Shown in pieces: positions 41,567 through 53,443 of a DNA stretch of 64,000 bases (its first letter is position 1; every line of letters starts with the position of its first letter). Made by a program: the position numbers and the translations under genes. A model generated the notes under the pieces. That model saw nothing but the letters and a program-made list of their open reading frames with translations, ran no database searches and was not told where the DNA came from. Source of the DNA: Candidatus Latescibacterota bacterium (GTDB lineage Bacteria > Latescibacterota > UBA2968); assembly GCA_965116885.1 (NCBI GenBank), contig OZ220741.1, positions 2,240,001-2,304,000 of the forward strand, written 5' to 3'.

Positions 41567-44227
41567 ATGTCCAAAAAGCTCTGGTTTTACGCTTCCGGAT
41601 TTTTCGCCGGAGTTGGCATGTGCCTGGCGGGTCTGGTCACACAGGCTCAGGCTCAATGGCCCGGCAATGCCAGAATCTCGATGTCCCGGGGTCAAATCGG
41701 TCACACGCTCCACAATCCGGGCATGACGGGAAAGAAAGATAACACGACAAAGTTGGCACAGTCTTCGTTTTCGTATCCTCAGGGCCGCAATATCAAGGTG
41801 TATTCGGGCGGTTCTGAGCGCGAAGGCTGGAATGCCAAGTCAAATACAGGTGGTGAAGGCTTCTGGGTGCTTTCCAATACGGGTGGCAGCCCCCAAGGTA
41901 CGTATGCAGGTCCGCGTATTACGTCTTCAGACCTGATTGGTCGCCCCCACGATATGACGCAGATGCCCGAGGCTTATGTAGGCGTTGTAGAAAACGGTGG
42001 CTGGGCAATGGCGATTCGCAGAGATAGTGGTGCGGACGCACCCAATATCGCGGGGTCAACAGTTCATGACCGCACGACCAACTGGTGGCCCGAAGCCCAC
42101 GGCATATCCAGTCCAGGTCCTGGAACGAATATCGCTGTTGTGGTCTGGAACTTCCGTTTTGGTCGCTACAACAGCAATGAGCCTTTTGCCAATCGCATTG
42201 GTTCTGGAGAATTGCCACAGTACAGTGCGCCTTCGTGGGTGGAATCTCTGTCTGAAGATGATTTTCCCGAGTTGATCGGTATTCAAGAAGGCGGTTCTTC
42301 AGCCACGGGTCTGGAGTGGACGCGCAAGTGGTTTTCCACGGCGCATCCCGATCACGATGAGTATTTTGTCGTTGACAACGAAGTGGTGAACAATTCGGGT
42401 TCGACGGCTGAAGGTGTGTATATCACCTTTGCCAACCGCTTCCACGCGGGTCAGGCTTCTGGCTGGCGGGGTCCGACCTCGTGGAATCACGCTTTCGATT
42501 GGACGCGCGATGATTATTATCGCAATACATTGGCACCCAATTACCTCAACGGCGTCAGCCGTGGGGATTACACCTCTGCGCTTGGTCGTTCTGCTGGTTT
42601 GCAGCGGGGTGTTGATCTTGCCAATGACGGTCATTTTATGACGTATTACCACGATGGGGACTCCGATCACATTTCCAATTTGATCAATGATCTGGGCGAT
42701 CCCTATCGCTATGCTATCGCCAAAGAGCGCTATACCCGCGAGCAGACGTGGGTGCGCGAAGGGATGATTCAGCACGGTCAGTATTTTGGTCTGGGCACTG
42801 TGGATGCCTTCCCGCCGTTTATGCGCTATGGCGGTGTGGATGATGCGATGTATGTGGCACCCCACGACAATCCAGCCACAGGGCACGATGAGAGCATGCA
42901 ACAGCCCGCTTCGGTGCTTTTCCACGGCTATCGCGGTACGAATGATTTTGACTATCCCTCGCCAGACCGTGCGGGCGATGCTCAGATTTACGACGCGGTT
43001 GCCAATGGCGGCTATACTGCTGAAAATGAAACGCCTGGGCATTATACCACGCTGGTATCTTATGGACCTTACACGCTGGCACCAGGTGAGAAGGCCAAAG
43101 TGGTGGTCGCCTATGTGGCGGGATTGGCAGCAGATCATGCCAAGTATGACGATTACAAGAAGTATGCCATGCCCTTTAACATGGGGTGGATGAACCACTA
43201 CGGTGGCAGGGGATCTGAGCCTACGGAATTGGCAGATCGCCAGCCCGAGATTCCCCTTGGTGAAGATGTGCTGTTCGATCACTTTGAGAATGCGATTCAG
43301 TGGTATAACTGGGGTTATGATCTTCCCAATCAGCCGCCGAATACCAAGGTGGCGTGGGATTCCAACCTTCAGGGTAAGACGCAGATTCGGTGGAGTGTCT
43401 TTGGCGAAGAGGCAATGGATCCAGATTATTCTGGCGCCGGGGCACAGGATTTGCGCGGGTATCGCATCTATCGCTCCAATGTGGAGTATCAGGGCGAGTG
43501 GGAGTATGTGACGGAGTTTTCATTCGAAGATGCGCGTGCGGGCAATTTGCCCACGGGTGTTTCGTATGAACCTTCTCGTACGTGGACAACGGTGAAGAGC
43601 GGTTCCTGGCCAACGGGTATTCCGCTGACGACCAATCAGTATGTCCATCCCGGTGTGCACGGTGGTCTTGATCCCGCTGCTGGTGCTGAGATTCCCGGCA
43701 CATATCTGTTTGACGATCAGGGTACCAATGCTGGTTTTCCCAACTGGTATAGTGTGCGTATGTATGACTCTGGTCACGGTGATTGGAATGGCGTGAGTAG
43801 CGTCGATGTCCTTGAAGCCTCGCAGAGCACCTCTCTGGGTTCTGTGTATGGTTCTCGTACGGGTATTGTTCCCGTTGTTCCTGGTGCAGCGGTGTTTGAT
43901 CGCCTCGAAGAGCAGGTTCGCGTGGTACCCAATCCGTTCAAGGTGGATAGCGATTTGCATACGTATAACCGCCAGCAGAATATGCGGTTTACGAATCTGC
44001 CAGGTCGCTGTCAGATCGACCTTTACGATGTGACGGGTCAGCGGATCTGGACCTTCTACAATCAGGATCCTCTGAAGGGCGAAGTGACGTATATCCAGCT
44101 TGCGGAGAATCGTCCCTCCAACTTTGGCGAGGCGATGTTCCCGGGTATTTACTTCTGGAAAGTCACCTCTCTGATGCCGGGATCAGAAGGCAAAACGCAG
44201 ACCGGCACATTCGTGATCATCAAGTAA
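41567..44227 (+). CDS. Large secreted protein with FN3-like and C-terminal T9SS-CTD/FlgD-like domain
   Basis: Signal peptide (AQA-Q); YGPYTLAPGE; LRGYRIYRS; VVPNPF..RFTNLPGRCQIDLYDVTG..PGIYFW; AAGGAG RBS. Confidence 0.75.
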   Translation: MSKKLWFYASGFFAGVGMCLAGLVTQAQAQWPGNARISMSRGQIGHTLHNPGMTGKKDNTTKLAQSSFSYPQGRNIKVYSGGSEREGWNAKSNTGGEGFWVLSNTGGSPQGTYAGPRITSSDLIGRPHDMTQMPEAYVGVVENGGWAMAIRRDSGADAPNIAGSTVHDRTTNWWPEAHGISSPGPGTNIAVVVWNFRFGRYNSNEPFANRIGSGELPQYSAPSWVESLSEDDFPELIGIQEGGSSATGLEWTRKWFSTAHPDHDEYFVVDNEVVNNSGSTAEGVYITFANRFHAGQASGWRGPTSWNHAFDWTRDDYYRNTLAPNYLNGVSRGDYTSALGRSAGLQRGVDLANDGHFMTYYHDGDSDHISNLINDLGDPYRYAIAKERYTREQTWVREGMIQHGQYFGLGTVDAFPPFMRYGGVDDAMYVAPHDNPATGHDESMQQPASVLFHGYRGTNDFDYPSPDRAGDAQIYDAVANGGYTAENETPGHYTTLVSYGPYTLAPGEKAKVVVAYVAGLAADHAKYDDYKKYAMPFNMGWMNHYGGRGSEPTELADRQPEIPLGEDVLFDHFENAIQWYNWGYDLPNQPPNTKVAWDSNLQGKTQIRWSVFGEEAMDPDYSGAGAQDLRGYRIYRSNVEYQGEWEYVTEFSFEDARAGNLPTGVSYEPSRTWTTVKSGSWPTGIPLTTNQYVHPGVHGGLDPAAGAEIPGTYLFDDQGTNAGFPNWYSVRMYDSGHGDWNGVSSVDVLEASQSTSLGSVYGSRTGIVPVVPGAAVFDRLEEQVRVVPNPFKVDSDLHTYNRQQNMRFTNLPGRCQIDLYDVTGQRIWTFYNQDPLKGEVTYIQLAENRPSNFGEAMFPGIYFWKVTSLMPGSEGKTQTGTFVIIK

Positions 44228-44263
44228 GGCGCGAAGCGTCAGACATAAAAAAGGAGAAAGACA

Positions 44264-45280
44264 ATGTTTAAGAAAGCACTGCTCTTCGGTCTGGCTGTTG
44301 CGCTTGCCCTGCCGATGTATGCACAGGCTCAGGAAGAGCGGCCGACTCAGGATTCATTAGGACCTTTTCCCGTGGATAGGACGCGCGTCCCCCCGGAAAC
44401 AGATCTGATTAAGTATGCTCGTGTTACGACGACGTCTTATGGATTTTTGAAGCTGACGGGCAATGCGCGCTCAGCAGGTATGGGCGATGCGTATTCGTCT
44501 GTTGGCAATGATCTGTCGGCGGTCTTTTACAACCCTGCAGGGGCAACGCAGATAGAGCGCTACGCGCTGACAGCATCTTATCTGAAGTGGATTGTGGGGT
44601 CTTCAATGGGGACGTTTGCCATTGGTGCCAAGACGAATGTGGCGACCTTTGCCGTCAACTTTGCGTATTTTACCACGGATGAGTTTGAAGAGACGACCTC
44701 ATCTCAACCCGGTGGCACGGGACGTATGGCCACCGCAGGCGACATGGCTGTTGGGTTGACCATTGCCAAGCAGGTGACGGATAAGTTGAGTGTGGGTGGT
44801 AATCTTCGCTGGGTTCAGGAAGACCTGGATTTGCAGTCGTATTCGTCTTATGACATAGATTTTGGAACGCTCTTTTACACGGGATTCCATTCGACGCGTC
44901 TTGGTATGTCGATGCGCAACCTGGGCGGCGACCAGGACGTGATTGGTCAGAAGGCGCGTTTCCCGATGGTGTTCAACCTGTCGGGTGCTGCTGAAGTCTA
45001 TGGGAATCTGGGCGATCCGCTGTCCGTGACAGTGGCAGTAGAACAGATGTTCTTCACAGACTCGATTAACCGTTATCACTTTGGCGCGGAAGCATGGGTA
45101 CAGAACATGCTGGCGTTGCGTGGTGGCTATAAGATCGGTTATGATTCCGAGTCTTGGACAGTGGGTGCAGGCTTGCGTCAGAAGTTAGGCGATCAGAGTG
45201 TGGGTGTGGATGTATCGTATTCAAGGGCTGAGGCGCTTGATGAATATCCCATTCGCGTTTCTGTTGGCGTTGGCTTCTAA
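44264..45280 (+). CDS. PorV/PorQ-family outer-membrane beta-barrel
   Basis: FLKLTGNARSAGMGDA, FYNPAG, DFGTLF, RNLG, LRGGY, VDVSY, terminal Phe. Confidence 0.8.
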   Translation: MFKKALLFGLAVALALPMYAQAQEERPTQDSLGPFPVDRTRVPPETDLIKYARVTTTSYGFLKLTGNARSAGMGDAYSSVGNDLSAVFYNPAGATQIERYALTASYLKWIVGSSMGTFAIGAKTNVATFAVNFAYFTTDEFEETTSSQPGGTGRMATAGDMAVGLTIAKQVTDKLSVGGNLRWVQEDLDLQSYSSYDIDFGTLFYTGFHSTRLGMSMRNLGGDQDVIGQKARFPMVFNLSGAAEVYGNLGDPLSVTVAVEQMFFTDSINRYHFGAEAWVQNMLALRGGYKIGYDSESWTVGAGLRQKLGDQSVGVDVSYSRAEALDEYPIRVSVGVGF

Positions 45281-46595: not shown

Positions 46596-46629
46596 AAGCC
46601 CCGGACGTTATCTAACGCCCGGGGCTTTT
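46596..46629 (+). terminator. Intrinsic terminator of the pspA operon
   Basis: AAGCCCCGG..CGTTA-TC-TAACG..CCGGGGCTTTT. Confidence 0.7.
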
Positions 46630-46641
46630 GTGTACAAATGC

Positions 46642-46671
46642 TTGACAGAGAGACTTATTGGAGATTATTTT
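46642..46671 (+). promoter_or_regulatory. sigma70-type promoter
   Basis: TTGACA-18 bp-TATTTT upstream of the channel operon. Confidence 0.55.
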
Positions 46672-46713: not shown

Positions 46714-48687
46714 TTGGAAAATCTTTTTTTTAAACTGCGATCGCGAACTACTGACCCGTTTGCGCGAGTAAAAAATTACCTGAAATTTCGCGTTGAGCGA
46801 TTGTTGTTGAGCGGAGCACATTCTCGATTGCTATTTATCGCATCCTTAATTGGCATTGTCGCCGTTTGTGGCGGTTTGCTGGTGCAGGCTACGGACGTGC
46901 CTTTTGATGATCGCGAAACAGCTATCTGGTGGGCTTTTTTGCGTTTGACCGATCCGGGTTATTTGGGGGATGATGAAGGGCTTGCCCGCCGCGTGATTTC
47001 AACGGTGGTGACAGTGCTTGGGTACGTGCTTTTTATGGGGTCTCTGATCGCGATTATGACGCAGTGGCTCAATCAGACGATTCGCGATTTTGAGCGCGGG
47101 CTTACGCCCATTGTGCGTCGCAATCACATTTTGATTTTGGGATGGACCAATCGCACATCCGAAATTGTCAGCGAGTTGATGCGCGCCGAAGGTCGCGTGC
47201 GCCGGTTTTTACAACTGCGCGGTGCGCGTGGGTTACACGTGGTGATTCTTTCCGAAGATGTGAGTTTGGAGCGCACAATGGAATTGCGGAGGGCACTGGG
47301 TCCTCTGTGGAATCCTAAAAAGATCACTTTTCGGTCGGGGATACCCCTGCGGATAGAACATCTGGAGCGCGTGGATTTTCAAAATGCGAGTGCCATTATT
47401 TTGCCCGGTGCTGATTTTGCCTATGGCAGTGCGGATGAATCGGATACGCGTATCATAAAAACACTGTTGTCAATAGCGAATCAACGAGAAAAAGAAGATG
47501 GGATAGAAGTTCTACCCCTGCTGGTGACAGAAATTTTTGATTCCGACAAAGTGTTTATGGCTAAAAGGGCTTATAGAGGCATTTTAGAGATTTTGGCGAG
47601 TGATCTTTTTATTACGCGATGTATGGCGCAAAATGTGCGTCATCCGGGATTGTCACAGGTGTTCCACGATATCTTGTCGCACGGGGTTGGCAATGAGGTC
47701 TATGTGCGAATGTGCGAGGAGTTTACGGGTTTTCGTTTTGGCGATCTATCGGGTGCGTACCCCAAAGCGATTTTGCTGGGCGTGGTGCGTCCTCAAGGTG
47801 AAACTTTTTGCCCCCTGCTCAATCCGCCCGAGGATCTGATTTTGGAATCAGAAGACCGGCTGGTCTTTTTGGCAGAAGATTACGGGGATTGTGAACCTCT
47901 GAGAAATTATCAGTTAGAACGCGTATCGCGTAAATTTCAAGAGGTGCCCCATGTGAGGGAAAAAGGCAAACGACGCATCTTAATTTTAGGATGGAATCAC
48001 AAAGCTGCGGTTTTGCTTAAAGAATTCGGCAGGCAGGTGCGCGAACAATTTGAGGTCGCGGTTTTGTCTCTTATACCCTTGGCACAAAGAGAAGCTGAAG
48101 TGGCGCAAAAAGGTATTGACCCGCGCCGAGTCGTTGTCACCCATCGCGAAGGCGATCCCACTTCTCTATCAGATTTAAGAGAAATGGAGCCAGGTGGGTA
48201 TGACAATGTGGTGATTTTGGGCAGTGACTGGGTAGAGACACAGGAAGAGTCGGATGCGCGGACGATTGTGGGACATCTGGTGCTGAGGAATGTGCTGGAT
48301 GAGGGCACACATAAACCAGAAATTCTGGTCGATTTGATGGATTTCGAAAATGTAGTGTTGTTTGAAGATTGCGATACCGAGGTTCTGGTTACGCCCATGA
48401 TCGCAAGCCATGTGCTGGCACAAGTTGCGTTGCGTCGGGAGATCAATGTTGTTTATGAAGAGTTGTTTGCCGCCGGTGGTGCAGAGATTTGCTTTCGCCG
48501 GGTTCCAGATTACGGCATAGCAGGTCTAAATATGAGTTTTGAAGAGCTAAAAGAGATGTCGGCATGTCGGGGCGAAATCGCGCTGGGTATTCGCCAAAAC
48601 GGCGGGGTTGTGCTCAATCCGACGCGTGATGAACCATATATGCTAAGTGAATCGGATGATCTTATTGTATTGGTTCGGGAGGATTAA
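46714..48687 (+). CDS. CASTOR/POLLUX (DMI1)-like cation channel with tandem RCK domains
   Basis: WWAFLRLTDPGYL pore motif; two ILILGW RCK starts; HPGLSQV; LLNPP. Confidence 0.8.
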   Translation: MENLFFKLRSRTTDPFARVKNYLKFRVERLLLSGAHSRLLFIASLIGIVAVCGGLLVQATDVPFDDRETAIWWAFLRLTDPGYLGDDEGLARRVISTVVTVLGYVLFMGSLIAIMTQWLNQTIRDFERGLTPIVRRNHILILGWTNRTSEIVSELMRAEGRVRRFLQLRGARGLHVVILSEDVSLERTMELRRALGPLWNPKKITFRSGIPLRIEHLERVDFQNASAIILPGADFAYGSADESDTRIIKTLLSIANQREKEDGIEVLPLLVTEIFDSDKVFMAKRAYRGILEILASDLFITRCMAQNVRHPGLSQVFHDILSHGVGNEVYVRMCEEFTGFRFGDLSGAYPKAILLGVVRPQGETFCPLLNPPEDLILESEDRLVFLAEDYGDCEPLRNYQLERVSRKFQEVPHVREKGKRRILILGWNHKAAVLLKEFGRQVREQFEVAVLSLIPLAQREAEVAQKGIDPRRVVVTHREGDPTSLSDLREMEPGGYDNVVILGSDWVETQEESDARTIVGHLVLRNVLDEGTHKPEILVDLMDFENVVLFEDCDTEVLVTPMIASHVLAQVALRREINVVYEELFAAGGAEICFRRVPDYGIAGLNMSFEELKEMSACRGEIALGIRQNGGVVLNPTRDEPYMLSESDDLIVLVRED

Positions 48688-48689
48688 GT

Positions 48690-49580
48690 ATGAAGCCCTG
48701 GGATAATTTACGCACGGTATTTGAAGAACCAATCGTTTCTTTTGGTGAAATAGAAATAACGCCAGCCATTTTGCTGACGGCTGCGCTGATTATTCTTATT
48801 GCGTATGGGATATCGCGGTTGTTGCAGCGCATGTTGCGGCGCAATGTGTTTGAACGGATACATTTAAACGAGGGTTCGCAGTCGGCTATTTGTCGCCTAT
48901 TGCACATTGTTATTATGTGCATCGGCGTATTTATCGCCATAGAATATACCGGGATTAATCTGACGACATTGGCTGCGGTTAGTGCGGTATTGCTGGTGGG
49001 GATTGGTTTGGGGTTGCAAACTATTACTCACAATTTTATCAGCGGACTCATTATGTTGTTTGAGCGCCCCGTGCAGGAAGGAGATTTTGTGGAGGTGGGC
49101 GGTGTGCAAGGGAGTGTGCAGGCGGTCAATGCATATAGCACAAAGGTCGAGACCCTGGATAATGTGACGATTATTGTGCCCAATTCAAAATTTCTATCTG
49201 AAAATGTCACAAACTGGAGCTTTCAAGAGTCAAAAGTGCGTATTCATGTGTCTGTCGGTGTGTCTTACGGTTCCGATGTGGAACTGGTCGCGGAGACGTT
49301 GTTGGAGGTGGGGCAGGCGCATCCAGAGGTTTTGTCCGACCCCGAACCGCAGATCCAGTTCCTGACATTTGGCGATAGTTCTCTGAATTTTGATTTGCTG
49401 GTTTGGATTGAGGATCCACCCCGTCAGTATTTTGTGATTAGTGATTTGAATTTTGCTATCGTCCGGGCATTCCGAGAGCGGAATATCGAGATTCCATTCC
49501 CACAGCGGGATTTGCATGTGCGAAGTGCCGTGCCAATGAGTGTGGCTACACAATCGGATGGTAATGAAAAAAAAGAATAG
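48690..49580 (+). CDS. mscS: Small-conductance mechanosensitive channel (MscS family)
   Basis: GIGLGLQ..NFISG..LFERP..GD, IIVPNS, VGVSYGSD, IEIPFPQRDLH. Confidence 0.9.
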   Translation: MKPWDNLRTVFEEPIVSFGEIEITPAILLTAALIILIAYGISRLLQRMLRRNVFERIHLNEGSQSAICRLLHIVIMCIGVFIAIEYTGINLTTLAAVSAVLLVGIGLGLQTITHNFISGLIMLFERPVQEGDFVEVGGVQGSVQAVNAYSTKVETLDNVTIIVPNSKFLSENVTNWSFQESKVRIHVSVGVSYGSDVELVAETLLEVGQAHPEVLSDPEPQIQFLTFGDSSLNFDLLVWIEDPPRQYFVISDLNFAIVRAFRERNIEIPFPQRDLHVRSAVPMSVATQSDGNEKKE

Positions 49581-49589
49581 GAAACGAAT

Positions 49590-51785
49590 TTGCAAAAACC
49601 AATGAGCTTTGTGCAGCAGCGGGGTATTTATTGCGTCCTCGCTTGTTTTTTGTTCGCTTCTTCATTGTGTGCAGAAGATATACGGCTTACGGTGATTCAC
49701 AGTAACGATGTGTCCGGGCAATTGACGCGGCAAGGAGATCGCGGGGGGATGGCTGCGCGCGTGGGGTTGATTCGCAAATTGCAGGCTTCTGAACCGGCGA
49801 TTGTTCTGGATGCGGGGGATGCTCTGGGTCCCAATGCGATGTCGCGGTTTGACGGGGGCACGACGATGTGCGCGGCGATGAATCGCGCGAATTATGCGGC
49901 TATGGCGGTGGGGAATCACGATCTGTCTTTGGGGTGGGATGTTTTGGAAGCGCGGCAAAAGGAAATTGATTTTCCGATGCTGGCGGCGAATCTCGTGCGA
50001 AGAGATGGTGGGAAGCCTCCTTTGCGGGGTTATATCCTGGTAAAGGTCGGCGATGTTCAGGTAGGGATCATTGGTGTGTTGGGGCCAGAGGTCGCAGATA
50101 AAATTGACCCGGGTCATCTGTCGGGTCTGAGGGTTGGCGATCCCGCTAAAGTTGTGGATTCATTGGCTGTTGTGTTGCGCGGTAAAAAGGCGCAGTGCGT
50201 TATTGTTTTGGCGCATATGGATGAAACGAGTGCTTTGAATTTTGCCCGCGGGGTTGAGGGCGTTGATCTGGTTGTCGCTGGCGGATTTAGCGATCTGGAC
50301 CGCGGTTTACAGGTGCCGGGTCTGATCCGTCTGGTGAATGGTCTGACGCTGGTCGTCACGCCGAGTAATGGGATGTCTGTTGGCCGCGTTGTGCTCCATT
50401 TTTCGCAAGATTCAGAGGGCAATATGAAGGTGGTGGATGTTGTGGCGGAGCAGATACCAGTGGATCGGTCTGTGGCGCGTGACCCGGAGGTAGAGCAATT
50501 GGTCAACGATCTCAGGCAAAGATACGAACAGGTCGCGAATCAGAGGATAGGGCGGATTGTGGGAAAGACATATCGAGATCAAGGGCGTGTTGTTGCAGGG
50601 GTGATGCGCCGATATTTGGATGGCGAGGTGGGCATTATCAATCGGGGGGGATTGGGGCTTGTGCCTTCAAATCGCGTGCTCAAAGTGGGGCATATCGATC
50701 GTTTGATTCCTTTTGATGATCGTCTGGTGAAGATGAGACTGACGGGTGCGCAACTTTTGAGTATTGCCCGACGCAGCCAAAATGCGCTGGGGGAAGATGC
50801 GCAGTTGATTTTTTCCGGTTTGGGAAAAAATACAATTAATGGGCGTCCCATTCAAAAGAACGAATTGTATCGCGTTGTAGTTGTCGAGTTTTTGGCGAAT
50901 GGCGGCGATGGATATGGCGAGTTTCGCAAGGGAACAGATGTTGTGTTTACGGGTATGCCGCTCCGACAAATGGTCGTTTATGCACTGCGAGATACGCAGA
51001 CTGTGCTGGTGCCTGGCGAGTTTGCCACTCTGAGATCAAATGGAATTTGGCACGTGAATTGGACTGTCAAGGGCGCGTTTAATCGCAATTATATCGATGG
51101 TACAACACTTGCGTATCGCGCGCAGAGAGAACGGGTATCATTTCTCAGCGGTAAGACCAGTCTGGCATGGAATACGACGATGAATTTGACAGTTGTAAGA
51201 GATATGGGAAAACAATTGCTTACGCTTGACCAGAGTCTGGTGATTGGGCAAGTTGGAACGGCGTTTGACAATTTAACGCGGTCAGAAGATCAATTGGAAA
51301 CGGATTTGATATATCGCTATCGCACGCAATCTGTGGCTGATCCTTTTGTTTTGGCGGGATATAGCACCGCATTGCGCGAAGTCGAGGGACACCGGCCCAG
51401 GCTTCTGCGCGGTAGTGCTGGTTTCCAACGGCGTTTTGGGAGGACCCTTACCGTCAGGTTGGGTGCCCGCGCACAGCGCGATCTGGCGGTTGACGCAAAT
51501 GACATAGGGGCTGAAGTGTATTTGGACTATCGGCGATCATTGGGCAGCGGCAAATTGCGGTCGCGGTTGCGCAGTTTTACGGGGTTTACAGATCGGCAGG
51601 TGGTGTCTTTAGAGAATTATAATTCGCTCGCTTTTCCATTGGTTGGCGAGTTGAGTTTGTCTGTGCAGCAGAGCAATTTTTTGTATCGCGTGAATAAAAT
51701 TCGCAATACGCCTGTTGATGGCATTGCCAATCGGTGGAATCTGACGCTCGGTCTGGTGTATGATTTGGGGTGGAAGTGGTATTGA
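49590..51785 (+). CDS. 5'-nucleotidase-like (metallophosphoesterase + 5_nucleotid_C) protein fused to a C-terminal outer-membrane beta-barrel
   Basis: Signal peptide; HSND, LDAGD, GNHD, FPMLAANL, LAHM, INRGG, FLANGGDGY; last ~245 aa amphipathic strands ending LGWKWY. Confidence 0.8.
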   Translation: MQKPMSFVQQRGIYCVLACFLFASSLCAEDIRLTVIHSNDVSGQLTRQGDRGGMAARVGLIRKLQASEPAIVLDAGDALGPNAMSRFDGGTTMCAAMNRANYAAMAVGNHDLSLGWDVLEARQKEIDFPMLAANLVRRDGGKPPLRGYILVKVGDVQVGIIGVLGPEVADKIDPGHLSGLRVGDPAKVVDSLAVVLRGKKAQCVIVLAHMDETSALNFARGVEGVDLVVAGGFSDLDRGLQVPGLIRLVNGLTLVVTPSNGMSVGRVVLHFSQDSEGNMKVVDVVAEQIPVDRSVARDPEVEQLVNDLRQRYEQVANQRIGRIVGKTYRDQGRVVAGVMRRYLDGEVGIINRGGLGLVPSNRVLKVGHIDRLIPFDDRLVKMRLTGAQLLSIARRSQNALGEDAQLIFSGLGKNTINGRPIQKNELYRVVVVEFLANGGDGYGEFRKGTDVVFTGMPLRQMVVYALRDTQTVLVPGEFATLRSNGIWHVNWTVKGAFNRNYIDGTTLAYRAQRERVSFLSGKTSLAWNTTMNLTVVRDMGKQLLTLDQSLVIGQVGTAFDNLTRSEDQLETDLIYRYRTQSVADPFVLAGYSTALREVEGHRPRLLRGSAGFQRRFGRTLTVRLGARAQRDLAVDANDIGAEVYLDYRRSLGSGKLRSRLRSFTGFTDRQVVSLENYNSLAFPLVGELSLSVQQSNFLYRVNKIRNTPVDGIANRWNLTLGLVYDLGWKWY

Positions 51786-51798
51786 GATCACAGAATAG

Positions 51799-53082
51799 AT
51801 GGGAAGAATAATGTCAGTAATGGAAGAAGATAGACGACCTGTTGCCGGTGCATTGATGGTTGGATTTGCTGCGGGTTTTTTGTTGTGTGGCTATGAGTTT
51901 GTGCGGAGTGTATCCACGTCGTTGTTCATCGGCGCGTATGGGGCGCACAATTTGCCTTTTGTTATGATGCTGGCGCCTCTGGGTACGTTTGGTATGGTTT
52001 GGGGGTATGGGGCGTTGTTGTCGCGGTTTGGGTCGCGGCAGACTTTGTTTTTGACGTCGGTGCTTTCGGGGGGAGGTATTCTGGCGTGTTATGGGGGGAT
52101 TGTGTCTGGTTTTCATCCGGCAGTCGGGGTGTTATATGTGCTGCGCGAAGCGTATATTGTGCTGATTATTGAACAGTACTGGTCGTTTATCAATAGCGTC
52201 TTGCGCGATGATCAGGGGCGAAAGTACAATGGTCCGATCTGTGGGATTGCGTCGGTGGGTGCGATTTGTGGGGGTTTGATTGTAGGGCAAACGGCGAAGG
52301 TGATAGGCAGTGAACATCTGCTGATTTTTGCAGGGTTATCCCTGTTGCCAGCAGCCGTTCTGGCGTGGTGGGCTTATGGTCTTGGAGGGGTGCCAGTTCA
52401 GGAGCCGGAAAAGCGAGGTAAGCTGGCGTTGGGTTTGTTTCGGGAAATTCCGACTTTGCGCTATCTCGCGGGATTGATTTTTGTGACGCAGATGGTGTCG
52501 GCGGTGTTGGATTTGCGGTTCAGTGGGCTGGTGGAGACGGCTTTGCCGATGCAGGACGAGCGCACCGCTTATTTGGGGCATTTTTATGCGTTGTTGAATG
52601 CATGTGCATTTGTGTTTCAGTTTGGCGTCGCGCCCCTGTTGCTGCGCTTTGTGTCGTTGCGAACTGCTCATCTCGGTATTCCGGTGGTTCATTTGATAAC
52701 GTGTGGGGTGTTGTTGGCATATCCGACTCTGACCACTGGTGCATTGGCCTATCTGGTGTTTAAGACACTGGATTATTCGGTGTTTCGAGCTGCAAAAGAG
52801 TTGCTCTATATTCCGCTTTCGTTTGATGCGAGGTACCGGGCCAAAGAAGTGATCGATGCGTTTGGCTATCGCGCGTCAAAGGGAATGACTTCGGGATTGA
52901 TTGCACTGGCGGGGACCATTTCTTACAGGGTTTTCAATATTGGGCGATTGCCGGGGTCAGTATATCCGCTTGTCGCATTGGGCGCGTTGGGTGTATGGAG
53001 TTGGCTCGCGTGGGCAATTACAAGATCGGGGGATGATAGGGGTCGGCGACCATTGGTCTCAGAGGAAGTTGCCGATTTGTAG
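51799..53082 (+). CDS. NTT/TLC (Npt1/Npt2, ATP/ADP translocase-like) MFS transporter
   Basis: ~12 TM; QYWSFINS; LDYSVFRAAKELLYIPL..RYRAKEVID..YRASKG signature. Confidence 0.8.
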   Translation: MGRIMSVMEEDRRPVAGALMVGFAAGFLLCGYEFVRSVSTSLFIGAYGAHNLPFVMMLAPLGTFGMVWGYGALLSRFGSRQTLFLTSVLSGGGILACYGGIVSGFHPAVGVLYVLREAYIVLIIEQYWSFINSVLRDDQGRKYNGPICGIASVGAICGGLIVGQTAKVIGSEHLLIFAGLSLLPAAVLAWWAYGLGGVPVQEPEKRGKLALGLFREIPTLRYLAGLIFVTQMVSAVLDLRFSGLVETALPMQDERTAYLGHFYALLNACAFVFQFGVAPLLLRFVSLRTAHLGIPVVHLITCGVLLAYPTLTTGALAYLVFKTLDYSVFRAAKELLYIPLSFDARYRAKEVIDAFGYRASKGMTSGLIALAGTISYRVFNIGRLPGSVYPLVALGALGVWSWLAWAITRSGDDRGRRPLVSEEVADL

Positions 53083-53090
53083 ATGAATGC

Positions 53091-53119
53091 TTGACACAAA
53101 ATGTCAAAACCTCTATTTT
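53091..53119 (+). promoter_or_regulatory. sigma70 promoter of the ileS leader
   Basis: TTGACA-17 bp-TATTTT. Confidence 0.7.
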
Positions 53120-53149
53120 TAACCGCGCTGATAGGAAAAGGATAAAAAT

Positions 53150-53287
53150 ATGACTACAACCCATCAAACATCTCCACAACTGAAAAAGGGTCCTGCCCAG
53201 GTGACAGGTTATCTGACACCGGGCAGTGCCATTGGGGTTATACGTATATATGCCGCGGAGGCGCTTGTGGGGTGTTGTTTGTCTTAA
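53150..53287 (+). CDS. Putative ileS leader peptide (45 aa)
   Basis: MTTTHQTSPQLKKGPAQVTGYLTPGSAIGVIRIYAAEALVGCCLS*; AAGGA RBS; Ile codons ATT, ATA, ATA clustered at 53231-53248. Confidence 0.65.
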   Translation: MTTTHQTSPQLKKGPAQVTGYLTPGSAIGVIRIYAAEALVGCCLS

Positions 53288-53310
53288 GCTATATACTTTT
53301 TGTATGACAC

Positions 53311-53343
53311 ACCGCCAGGGCGTTTGCCGTGGCGGTTTTTTTT
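53311..53343 (+). terminator. Attenuator terminator upstream of ileS
   Basis: ACCGCCA..GGC-GTTT-GCC..TGGCGGT followed by a T-run. Confidence 0.8.
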
Positions 53344-53392
53344 GCAGTAATTTGGGGCGGCATTTAACCTGATGGGTGGTGGGGTTGGGGGT

Positions 53393-53433
53393 ATCCTGTT
53401 CATCCTTCCATCCTGCCCATCCTGATTCTGACA
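53393..53433. repeat. Short degenerate ATCCT tandem repeat
   Basis: ATCCTGTTC ATCCTTCC ATCCTGCCC ATCCTGATTCTGACA. Confidence 0.7.
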
Positions 53434-53443
53434 GGAGTTTTTA

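Follow-up and report, generated by a model that had tools for sequence, protein, structure and literature searches.

The question raised by this locus is whether a protein that joins a degenerate 5'-nucleotidase to an outer-membrane barrel forms a nucleotide import system with the carrier encoded directly downstream. The locus lies in a stretch of 64,000 nucleotides, hereafter the window, of a sponge-associated Candidatus Latescibacterota bacterium (GenBank assembly GCA_965116885.1, contig OZ220741.1, positions 2,240,001 to 2,304,000), whose genome of 5.56 Mb forms a single contig and is 98% complete; the genomes of its relatives are all metagenome-assembled genomes labelled Latescibacterota. 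The gene of the barrel protein, named NT5bar here, ends with its stop codon at 51785 and the ATG of the carrier gene stands at 51799, leaving the gap of 13 nt already noticed in a preliminary description of the window. That description had proposed an import system made of a pore, a tethered nucleotide binder and a carrier, a proposal that the comparison of genomes does not sustain, since the two genes are adjacent in one genus only and 33 of the 48 genomes with NT5bar have no orthologue of the carrier. Sequence comparisons and structural models point to NT5bar as a non-catalytic periplasmic binding or scaffold protein, anchored in the outer membrane and linked to clusters of K+ and osmotic genes, a reading that we hold at about even chances. 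The parts of NT5bar and the carrier gene are located as follows.

49590..51785, + strand: NT5bar, a barrel-fused pseudo-5'-nucleotidase, 731 codons from TTG 49590
49590..49673, + strand: Sec-type signal peptide, predicted cleavage after Ala28 (..SSLCA/EDI), from the sequence and the family alignment
49680..50489, + strand: metallophosphoesterase-like N-domain with degenerate motifs (UshA alignment, Foldseek)
50490..50984, + strand: 5'-nucleotidase C-terminal (substrate-binding) domain (Pfam 5_nucleotid_C, 6.7e-12)
50985..51044, + strand: linker of 20 residues (466-485), helix-free in prediction (DSSP strings of the AlphaFold2 models)
51045..51785, + strand: 12-stranded outer-membrane beta-barrel, C-terminal end ..GWKWY (AlphaFold2, VIA-align, Foldseek)
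51799..53082, + strand: distant TLC/NTT-family carrier, 427 aa, single domain

The nucleotidase-like part has the two-domain fold of the UshA/CD73 family (metallophosphoesterase and 5_nucleotid_C), as indicated by both Foldseek and Pfam. Among proteins of solved structure, 5'-nucleotidases of bacteria and vertebrates come nearest in sequence (E-values of 2e-23 and weaker), and the full-length AlphaFold2 model, made with 41 family sequences (predicted local distance difference test, pLDDT, 86.2; predicted template-modelling score 0.73), matches UshA, c4898 and CD73 in Foldseek with E-values of 1.6e-32 to 1e-30 and target template-modelling scores of 0.68-0.76 over ca. 500-520 columns. The 5_nucleotid_C domain scores 46.2 bits against a Pfam cut-off of 23.6; the Metallophos domain reaches 17 bits and stays under its cut-off of 21.5. 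A hydrophobic N-terminus occurs in all rows of the family alignment, which has no conserved cysteine position, and residues 8-24 form a helix of low pLDDT in the AlphaFold2 model. The TTG start is preceded by AGGA 7 nt upstream, and ATG 49602 is the start in most homologues.

Within this fold, the altered motifs NDVSG (residues 39-43, nt 49704-49718) and GGFSD (231-235) and the intact motifs DAGD (74-77), GNHD(LS) (108-111) and LAH (207-209) were all found in the sequence, as the preliminary description had stated. Alignment of the family to E. coli UshA (K-12 record) indicates that the damage is wider than was noticed then, because Arg410 and the loop of Arg375 and Arg379 are affected as well. 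In UshA numbering, NT5bar carries the replacements H43->S, H252->F, Q254->D, D120->S and R410->G, and the 10-residue loop bearing Arg375 and Arg379 is deleted. We take D41, H43, D84, N116, H217, H252 and Q254 of UshA to form its dimetal site, H117-D120 its catalytic dyad, and R375, R379 and R410 to be its phosphate-binding arginines. On this basis, both the dimetal site and the His117-Asp120 dyad are incomplete in NT5bar, and all three arginines are missing. Retained are Asp41, Asp84, Asn116, His117 and His217, along with Phe375, Phe434 and Asp440 of NT5bar, which correspond to F429 and F498 of UshA, presumably the nucleoside clamp, and to D504, presumably the ribose-binding Asp.

The sole other gene of the 5'-nucleotidase family in this genome (G000:C1:3793666-3795090 in our numbering of genomes and contigs) encodes a protein of 474 aa with a signal peptide that is conserved in the genus and that keeps NDTHG but has GNG for GNH and GGDTH for GGHS. 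Since motifs are changed in both family genes, a fully canonical 5'-nucleotidase seems to be missing from the genome.

The degeneracy of NT5bar extends across its family. Among 41 barrel-fused members His43 is never kept, His252 and Gln254 are kept in two members each, and the Arg375/Arg379 loop is deleted in all; Asp120 and Arg410 each persist in 19. Better conserved are His117 (29/41), Asp84 (30/41), Asn116 (34/41), Asp41 (35/41) and His217 (36/41), as well as the clamp, with Phe or Tyr at position 429 in 36 members and at position 498 in 32, and Asp504 in 34. By comparison, His43, His252 and Arg410 are each kept in all four of the non-barrel relatives. Five of the 41 members, those of the most divergent clade, have lost every catalytic residue and retain the architecture. 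The check on conservation of the substitutions thus gave a family-wide result and supports the earlier suggestion of a pseudo-enzyme, to which the loss of catalytic and phosphate-binding residues across the family corresponds.

This degenerate domain is maintained by selection, as the ratio of nonsynonymous to synonymous substitution rates ranges from 0.12 to 0.36 in all three segments, namely N-domain, C-domain and barrel (11 pairwise orthologue comparisons). A search of a collection of 5.8 billion proteins returned 68 matches with identity down to 22%, 46 of which cover at least 90% of the 731 aa; together with the purifying selection, these near-full-length matches indicate that NT5bar is no chance open reading frame. 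All 22 genome loci with a taxon label belong to Latescibacterota, one more being labelled only "uncultured bacterium", and the few matches from outside the phylum are very distant (e.g. a Persicimonas protein and Atlas clusters labelled Myxococcota). Within the phylum, a full-length NT5bar in one open frame was found in 48 of 151 genomes. The architecture is real and conserved, and apparently undescribed, no prior account of a nucleotidase joined to a barrel having been found in the literature searched by title and abstract, subscription literature excluded.

The suggestion that the last ~245 aa form a beta-barrel is confirmed by structure prediction. Residues 486-730 form 12 strands in the full-length model as well as in a model of the domain alone (19 sequences, pLDDT 84.3), they match solved outer-membrane barrels, and the C-terminal residue is aromatic, as is typical of beta-signals. 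Foldseek aligned the barrel with OmpG, with the autotransporter barrels of EstA and NalP and with COG4313 (E-values of 3e-7 to 1e-5, with 4e-7 for EstA). VIA-align, a search independent of Foldseek, placed Tsx on top (Z 15.6, root-mean-square deviation 3.2 A, 204 residues aligned, 9% identity), followed by AaaA (14.3), VhGalP, COG4313, KdgM, NanC, PcoB, OMPLA, NalP (13.2) and EstA (13.2), all with Z between 13.2 and 14.3. Most of these matches are 12-stranded and their identities are 5-11%, so that they speak for the fold and not for the function; the lead of Tsx over the next 12-stranded barrel is 1.3 Z. Homology to Tsx was also sought by sequence, by comparing 19 family barrels with Pfam at E<=10. 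The families listed were DUF481, DUF3078, OMP_b-brl, DUF6666, OprF, Autotransporter and PSF1_C, with no Tsx family among them, and the fold match to Tsx is therefore treated as a shared number of strands only.

The affinities of the barrel lie elsewhere. DUF481 matches 10 of the 19 family barrels weakly (best E-value 5.6e-4) and DUF3078 matches 5, the barrel of NT5bar itself matching neither in the Pfam scan. When a profile of the barrel was compared with 1.84 billion representatives, 97 proteins were retrieved at E<=1e-3, and the strong matches were proteins of 700-800 aa with a C-terminal barrel, or fragments of these. Among 32 matches analysed with Pfam, 5_nucleotid_C was present in 8 of the 12 long ones, and DUF3078 and/or DUF481 in 12 of 19 stand-alone barrels (230-305 aa). 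These matches suggest that the barrel of NT5bar is a remote offshoot of the DUF481/DUF3078 barrels that is found essentially only in this fusion. A comparison of the barrel part with the ESM Atlas gave further leads, and no more than leads, the nearest clusters being hypothetical proteins with 5_nucleotid_C (score 0.91) and DUF3078/DUF481 outer-membrane proteins (0.82-0.85).

The orientation of the barrel can be read from the connections between its strands, which in the AlphaFold2 model of the domain measure, in order, 18, 3, 11, 6, 9, 3, 4, 2, 3, 2 and 2 residues. The long ones occupy odd positions, as expected of extracellular loops, which would place the N-terminus, and with it the nucleotidase-like domain, in the periplasm; this location is likely, as far as the model goes. 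The 18-residue first loop, after strand 1 (region of residues 504-523), has low pLDDT, although few segments of the family are better conserved, and might be folded into the pore.

In the window, NT5bar and the carrier are the last two of four co-directional open reading frames (46714-53082) that are separated by gaps of 2, 9 and 13 nt. The two genes that precede them both encode ion channels.

46714..48687, + strand: RCK ion channel of the CASTOR/POLLUX type, 657 aa, with which the cluster begins (Pfam Castor_Poll_mid 1.6e-20, Slo-like_RCK 2.3e-7)
48690..49580, + strand: MscS-family mechanosensitive channel, 296 aa (Pfam MS_channel_2nd 2.1e-22, MS_channel_3rd 1.1e-18)

Such channels recur next to NT5bar elsewhere in the phylum. 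In a survey of fetched flanks of NT5bar loci from 14 genera (for one locus, L052 of genome G102, neighbours were judged by tblastn alone), MscS and/or a K+ channel, either of the Castor type or a Kch-like protein with TrkA_N/Ion_trans_2, was found near NT5bar in five genera (g1, g5, g7, g15 and g16), which represent three families and differ in gene order. A permease of 750 aa resembling K-Cl cotransporters adjoins NT5bar in g7 and g16 and is found nearby in g5 (3 of the 14 genera). Chance adjacency to NT5bar is unlikely given that the 5.56-Mb genome of the window has only two MscS-family genes, the cluster copy included, and a single Castor-type channel (tblastn). Apart from g3 and the most divergent clade, described below, the flanks of the remaining genera contained nothing informative.

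Several other associations were observed in these flanks. In g15, g16 and g5 (L054-L056, L060, L063, L012), MscS and NT5bar have beside them a GspE/PilB-like ATPase that begins with an HTH_17-like segment, and no other secretion or pilus gene was seen in the flanks of these loci. In the divergent clade (L065-L069, genera g38, g41 and g44), genes for a TonB-dependent receptor and a Wzi-like protein precede NT5bar in four of five loci (L065-L068), and an LPG_synthase_TM or radical-SAM/SPASM gene lies 3' of the NT5bar relative. Finally, one frame of 762 aa at L017:12316-14604 combines LNT_N and CN_hydrolase (apolipoprotein N-acyltransferase) with a complete TatC; either the fusion is genuine or the calling of open reading frames ran across two genes.

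The carrier itself turned out to be a distant relative of the proteins to which it had been compared. Described earlier as a stand-alone NTT, it is indeed a single-domain protein of 427 aa, but it is not a canonical NTT, as it scores 23.6 bits on NCBIfam TIGR00769 (NTP/NDP exchange), far under the cut-off of 387.2. Pfam TLC (PF03219) is matched with an E-value of 7.8e-8 (32.0 bits, cut-off 21) over 57 residues only (308-364), and with 21.8 bits in a genome-wide scan; phmmer aligned residues 112-412 with the plastid NTT1 chain 9j3j_A (E 1.1e-6). These weak TLC and TIGR00769 scores place the carrier as a distant member of the TLC family. It is present in a single copy in the genome, its hydropathy (Kyte-Doolittle) shows some 11-12 hydrophobic segments arranged as 6+6, and its group is a broad one of 746 matches of 400-430 aa from phyla with free-living or symbiotic members, Planctomycetes, Poribacteria, Hydrogenedentes and Armatimonadetes among them. 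Import of intact nucleotides, the premise of the proposal, is established for a single characterised clade of NTTs only, according to Major et al. 2017 (PMC5381601): there, NTT homologues are widespread among free-living bacteria, with one sequence of Latescibacteria in the set, the characterised NTTs belong to one clade with three exceptions, and at least one homologue outside it failed to transport nucleotides. In the present genome, all the markers searched for that indicate synthesis of purines and pyrimidines de novo were detected (3/3).

Another TLC arrangement occurs in many Latescibacterota, in which a TLC-like open reading frame of ~450 aa stands beside one of ~900 aa with a TLC-like N-terminus (e.g. 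G007:C1:2153950-2156355; also in G028, G051, G059, G085, G102, G108, G109, G117, G119 and G009). These share 25-29% identity with the carrier of the window, and the longer one may represent the NTT-HEAT type treated by Major et al.

The distribution of the two genes was then compared over the 151 genomes, some of which are incomplete, with an orthologue threshold of E<=1e-100 for the carrier. Carrier orthologues were detected in 28 genomes, 15 of which also have NT5bar, so that 13 carrier genomes lack a full-length NT5bar and, as said, 33 NT5bar genomes lack the carrier. The two genes lie less than 1 kb apart in 12 genomes, all of the window's genus, and synteny, a check put forward with the import proposal, thus holds within that genus only; in the three other genomes having both, they are 4.2 kb apart (G114) or on different contigs (G117 and G077). 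Even in the window's genus, the 20 genomes (the window's own included) comprise 12 with both genes, four with the carrier and no intact NT5bar, three with neither, and one (G018) with a divergent barrel protein only and no carrier. Among the four, NT5bar has an internal deletion and a frameshift in G039, is reduced to its last 95 codons in G083 and is cleanly gone in G073 and G045, where MscS abuts the carrier; the carrier remains 95-97% identical to that of the window in all of them. In genus g5, the carrier gene overlaps the end of the K-Cl-cotransporter-like gene. In two relatives of the window's genus (L002 and L007), a 0.7-kb higBA insert on the opposite strand splits NT5bar from the carrier. 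This insert (L002:9215-9766, minus strand, and L007:9182-9846) codes for a toxin resembling HigB (Pfam 2.4e-14) together with an HTH_3 antitoxin, and blastn detected none in the window's genome. The repeated occurrence of genomes with one gene and not the other indicates that each does without its neighbour, and the most likely reading of this pattern is that the link between NT5bar and the TLC carrier is confined to the genus and can be lost.

Presence of the cluster in RNA libraries was also recorded. Contigs of sponge metatranscriptomes (four runs, three studies) match all four genes; several of 166-273 nt have zero differences from the window, and one of 303 nt (94% identity) bridges the junction between NT5bar and the carrier. 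As these runs were available as assembled contigs, they tell of presence in the libraries and not of transcript ends, strand or level, and bins left uncovered (e.g. 49505-49771) are uninformative.

Taken together, these data suggest the following organization. NT5bar would be exported by Sec and reside in the outer membrane, as a member of a family almost confined to Latescibacterota in the collections searched. Its C-terminal 246 residues, which form a 12-stranded barrel akin to those of DUF481/DUF3078, would serve as an outer-membrane anchor and perhaps as a small channel, and its N-terminal 440 residues, of the UshA/CD73 type, would most likely face the periplasm. Because two of seven metal ligands, the Asp of the dyad and the three arginines are lost and the aromatic clamp and its Asp are kept, we infer that this module is a non-catalytic binder or scaffold for a nucleoside-like or other planar ligand and not a hydrolase. 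Since it is MscS, K+ channels and the K-Cl-cotransporter-like gene that recur around NT5bar, and not the carrier, a role as an envelope component tied to K+ and osmotic homeostasis is favoured over nucleotide import.

Several observations weigh against this proposal. Five of the seven metal ligands survive (Asp41, Asp84, Asn116, His217 and, loosely, an Asp at position 254), plus His117, and NT5bar may therefore retain a mononuclear metal site and hydrolyse to some extent; structure alone may account for the conservation of the two Phe and the Asp. No ion-channel neighbour was found in 9 of the 14 genera, and synteny common to related genera does not provide independent observations. Other contexts exist as well, NT5bar being preceded in g3 by a PorV-family outer-membrane protein and a protein of ~880 aa, and in the most divergent clade by the receptor and the Wzi-like protein mentioned above. 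The 13-nt spacing and the single RNA contig across the junction fit co-transcription with the carrier in the window's genus, where a local functional tie may exist. Finally, an N-terminal globular domain followed by a C-terminal 12-stranded barrel is the architecture of autotransporters too.

The other explanations have to be judged on the same data. In the import system, the barrel would be a pore, the pseudo-nucleotidase would capture intact nucleotides scavenged from a sponge host or the environment, and the carrier would bring them into the cell. The co-directional genes with their narrow gap, their proximity in all 12 genomes of the genus that have both, a base clamp kept where catalytic residues are lost, the nucleoside channel Tsx as best structural match of the barrel, and the sponge RNA contigs, one of them bridging the junction, are what such a system would be expected to show; yet the carrier and NT5bar are each commonly found without the other, the carrier stays nearly unchanged where NT5bar is absent or a remnant, the higBA insert separates the genes, and in g5 the carrier is coupled to the K-Cl-cotransporter-like gene instead. 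The missing arginines further argue against binding of nucleotides as opposed to nucleosides, the carrier is a distant TLC member only, the lead of Tsx is narrow at 9% identity, and the synthesis markers are complete, so that import is improbable, although possible as an elaboration specific to one genus. A related idea, also doubtful, would make NT5bar a ligand-gated or ligand-capturing element of the outer membrane, part of an envelope module not recognised so far, that binds a nucleoside-type signal or metabolite in the periplasm and couples it to solute passage through a Tsx-like barrel, alongside MscS, K+ channels and K-Cl cotransport. In the sponge-associated genus, the carrier would extend the module by taking this nucleotide-like compound through the inner membrane. 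The ligand would be, for example, adenosine or a breakdown product of a cyclic dinucleotide released in the course of osmotic adjustment. In other bacteria, cyclic di-AMP (c-di-AMP) governs K+ and osmolyte transport, and the genome encodes a diadenylate cyclase domain, which suggests that c-di-AMP signalling is available to this organism.

Two further explanations concern NT5bar alone. It might still be an enzyme, namely a phosphoesterase tethered to the outer membrane with a remodelled metal site (mononuclear or Tyr-liganded) and a substrate other than 5'-nucleotides. Few residues of the family are conserved as well as Asp41, Asp84, Asn116 and His217, His117 is kept in most members and the complete His117-Asp120 pair in 19 of the 41, the N-domain is under purifying selection, and Tyr, a metal ligand in purple acid phosphatases, occurs at position 43 in 14 members and at position 252 in 12. 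The protein of the window and its genus nevertheless have Ser 43 and Phe 252, which are unable to substitute His or Tyr as ligands, His117 is changed to Ile, Gln, Arg, Lys, Pro or Ser in 12 of the 41, the divergent clade keeps the architecture without any catalytic residue, and the Metallophos match is below threshold; a retained activity is thus unlikely. Equally, little confidence is given to an autotransporter-like (type V) protein, whose barrel would bring the nucleotidase-like domain to the outside of the cell, where it would serve as adhesin or ligand trap towards the sponge. The order of parts is that of type Va (signal peptide, globular passenger, C-terminal 12-stranded barrel), AaaA, NalP and EstA are among the top folds, and EstA provides a precedent for a globular enzyme as passenger. 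But the models predict a helix neither in the 20-residue linker nor before strand 1, Pfam Autotransporter (PF03797) matches a single one of the 19 family barrels (E 0.0076), the barrel is closest in sequence to stand-alone DUF3078/DUF481 proteins (12 of 19 examined), and 12-stranded barrels that are not autotransporters score equally well.

Besides the genes described above, signals that might delimit the cluster were located on both sides of it.

46596-46627: strong 14-bp hairpin that precedes the promoter match
46642..46671, + strand: sigma-70-like promoter TTGACA-18-TATTTT, 5' of the four-gene cluster, a consensus match only
53312..53343, + strand: putative terminator-like hairpin CCGCCA..TGGCGG followed by T8, read from the sequence, with a loop longer than the 8 nt allowed in the hairpin scan

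Promoter-like sites were 11 in the scan against 9.2 expected. The hairpin and T8 lie in the spacer of 360 nt between the carrier gene and ileS. This spacer (53083-53443) also contains a promoter-like match (53091-53119) and a possible open reading frame of 45 codons, and one sponge RNA-library contig has 27 other bases in place of 53345-53432; the spacer may correspond to a leader or an attenuator. Upstream of the cluster, the region 41567-45280 encodes a protein of 886 aa without a family match together with an outer-membrane protein of the PorV/PorQ family (NCBIfam 153 bits, cut-off 90). The pair lies 5 kb upstream of NT5bar in the window and directly upstream of it in g3. In this genome, tblastn found nine loci of the 886-aa protein and 15 of the outer-membrane protein, and a pair at G000:C1:210090-213797 is 97.5-100% identical to that of the window, which suggests a recent duplication.

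NT5bar thus appears as an ancient fusion kept under selection in a candidate phylum without cultured members, where it recurs beside the few mechanosensitive and K+ channels of the cell. Pseudo-enzymes are well known as binding or scaffold modules inside cells; to our knowledge, they have rarely been described as integral parts of outer-membrane proteins. If a nucleoside-like ligand were bound, NT5bar would offer a handle on how small molecules are sensed or moved across a poorly understood envelope, that of sponge symbionts included. The locus also calls for caution in two respects: the tight spacing of two genes in one genus suggested a system that comparison across the phylum fails to support, and a Pfam match to TLC/NTT in a prototroph with a large genome should not be taken for ATP or nucleotide scavenging.

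In comparison with known systems, NT5bar shares with UshA, CD73 and NadN the two-domain fold, the conserved DxxD/GD/GN/H scaffold, the nucleoside clamp with its Asp and an extracytoplasmic or periplasmic location, as implied by its signal peptide; it differs from them by the lack of His43, His252, Gln254, Asp120, Arg410 and the Arg375/Arg379 loop, and by the fused outer-membrane barrel, which is absent from all solved relatives listed. The stand-alone barrels of DUF481 (YdiY-type) and DUF3078 are the nearest relatives of its barrel in sequence and are of similar size, but they have no periplasmic enzyme-like domain and the matches of the NT5bar family to them are below or near the family cut-offs. 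Tsx, KdgM, NanC and PcoB are likewise 12-stranded barrels of a size near that of NT5bar, whereas Tsx has no attached periplasmic domain and shares 9% identity with the NT5bar barrel. Type Va autotransporters with enzyme passengers (EstA and AaaA) resemble NT5bar in having an N-terminal globular domain and a 12-stranded barrel (Z 13-14), unlike which NT5bar has no predicted pore-spanning helix and essentially no Pfam Autotransporter signal. As for the carrier, it passes the TLC cut-off, has the ..K-E-x-x-Y-I-P-L.. segment in common with plastid NTT1 and the chlamydial and rickettsial Npt/Tlc transporters and aligns with chain 9j3j_A over 300 residues, but is about 70-100 residues shorter than these transporters.

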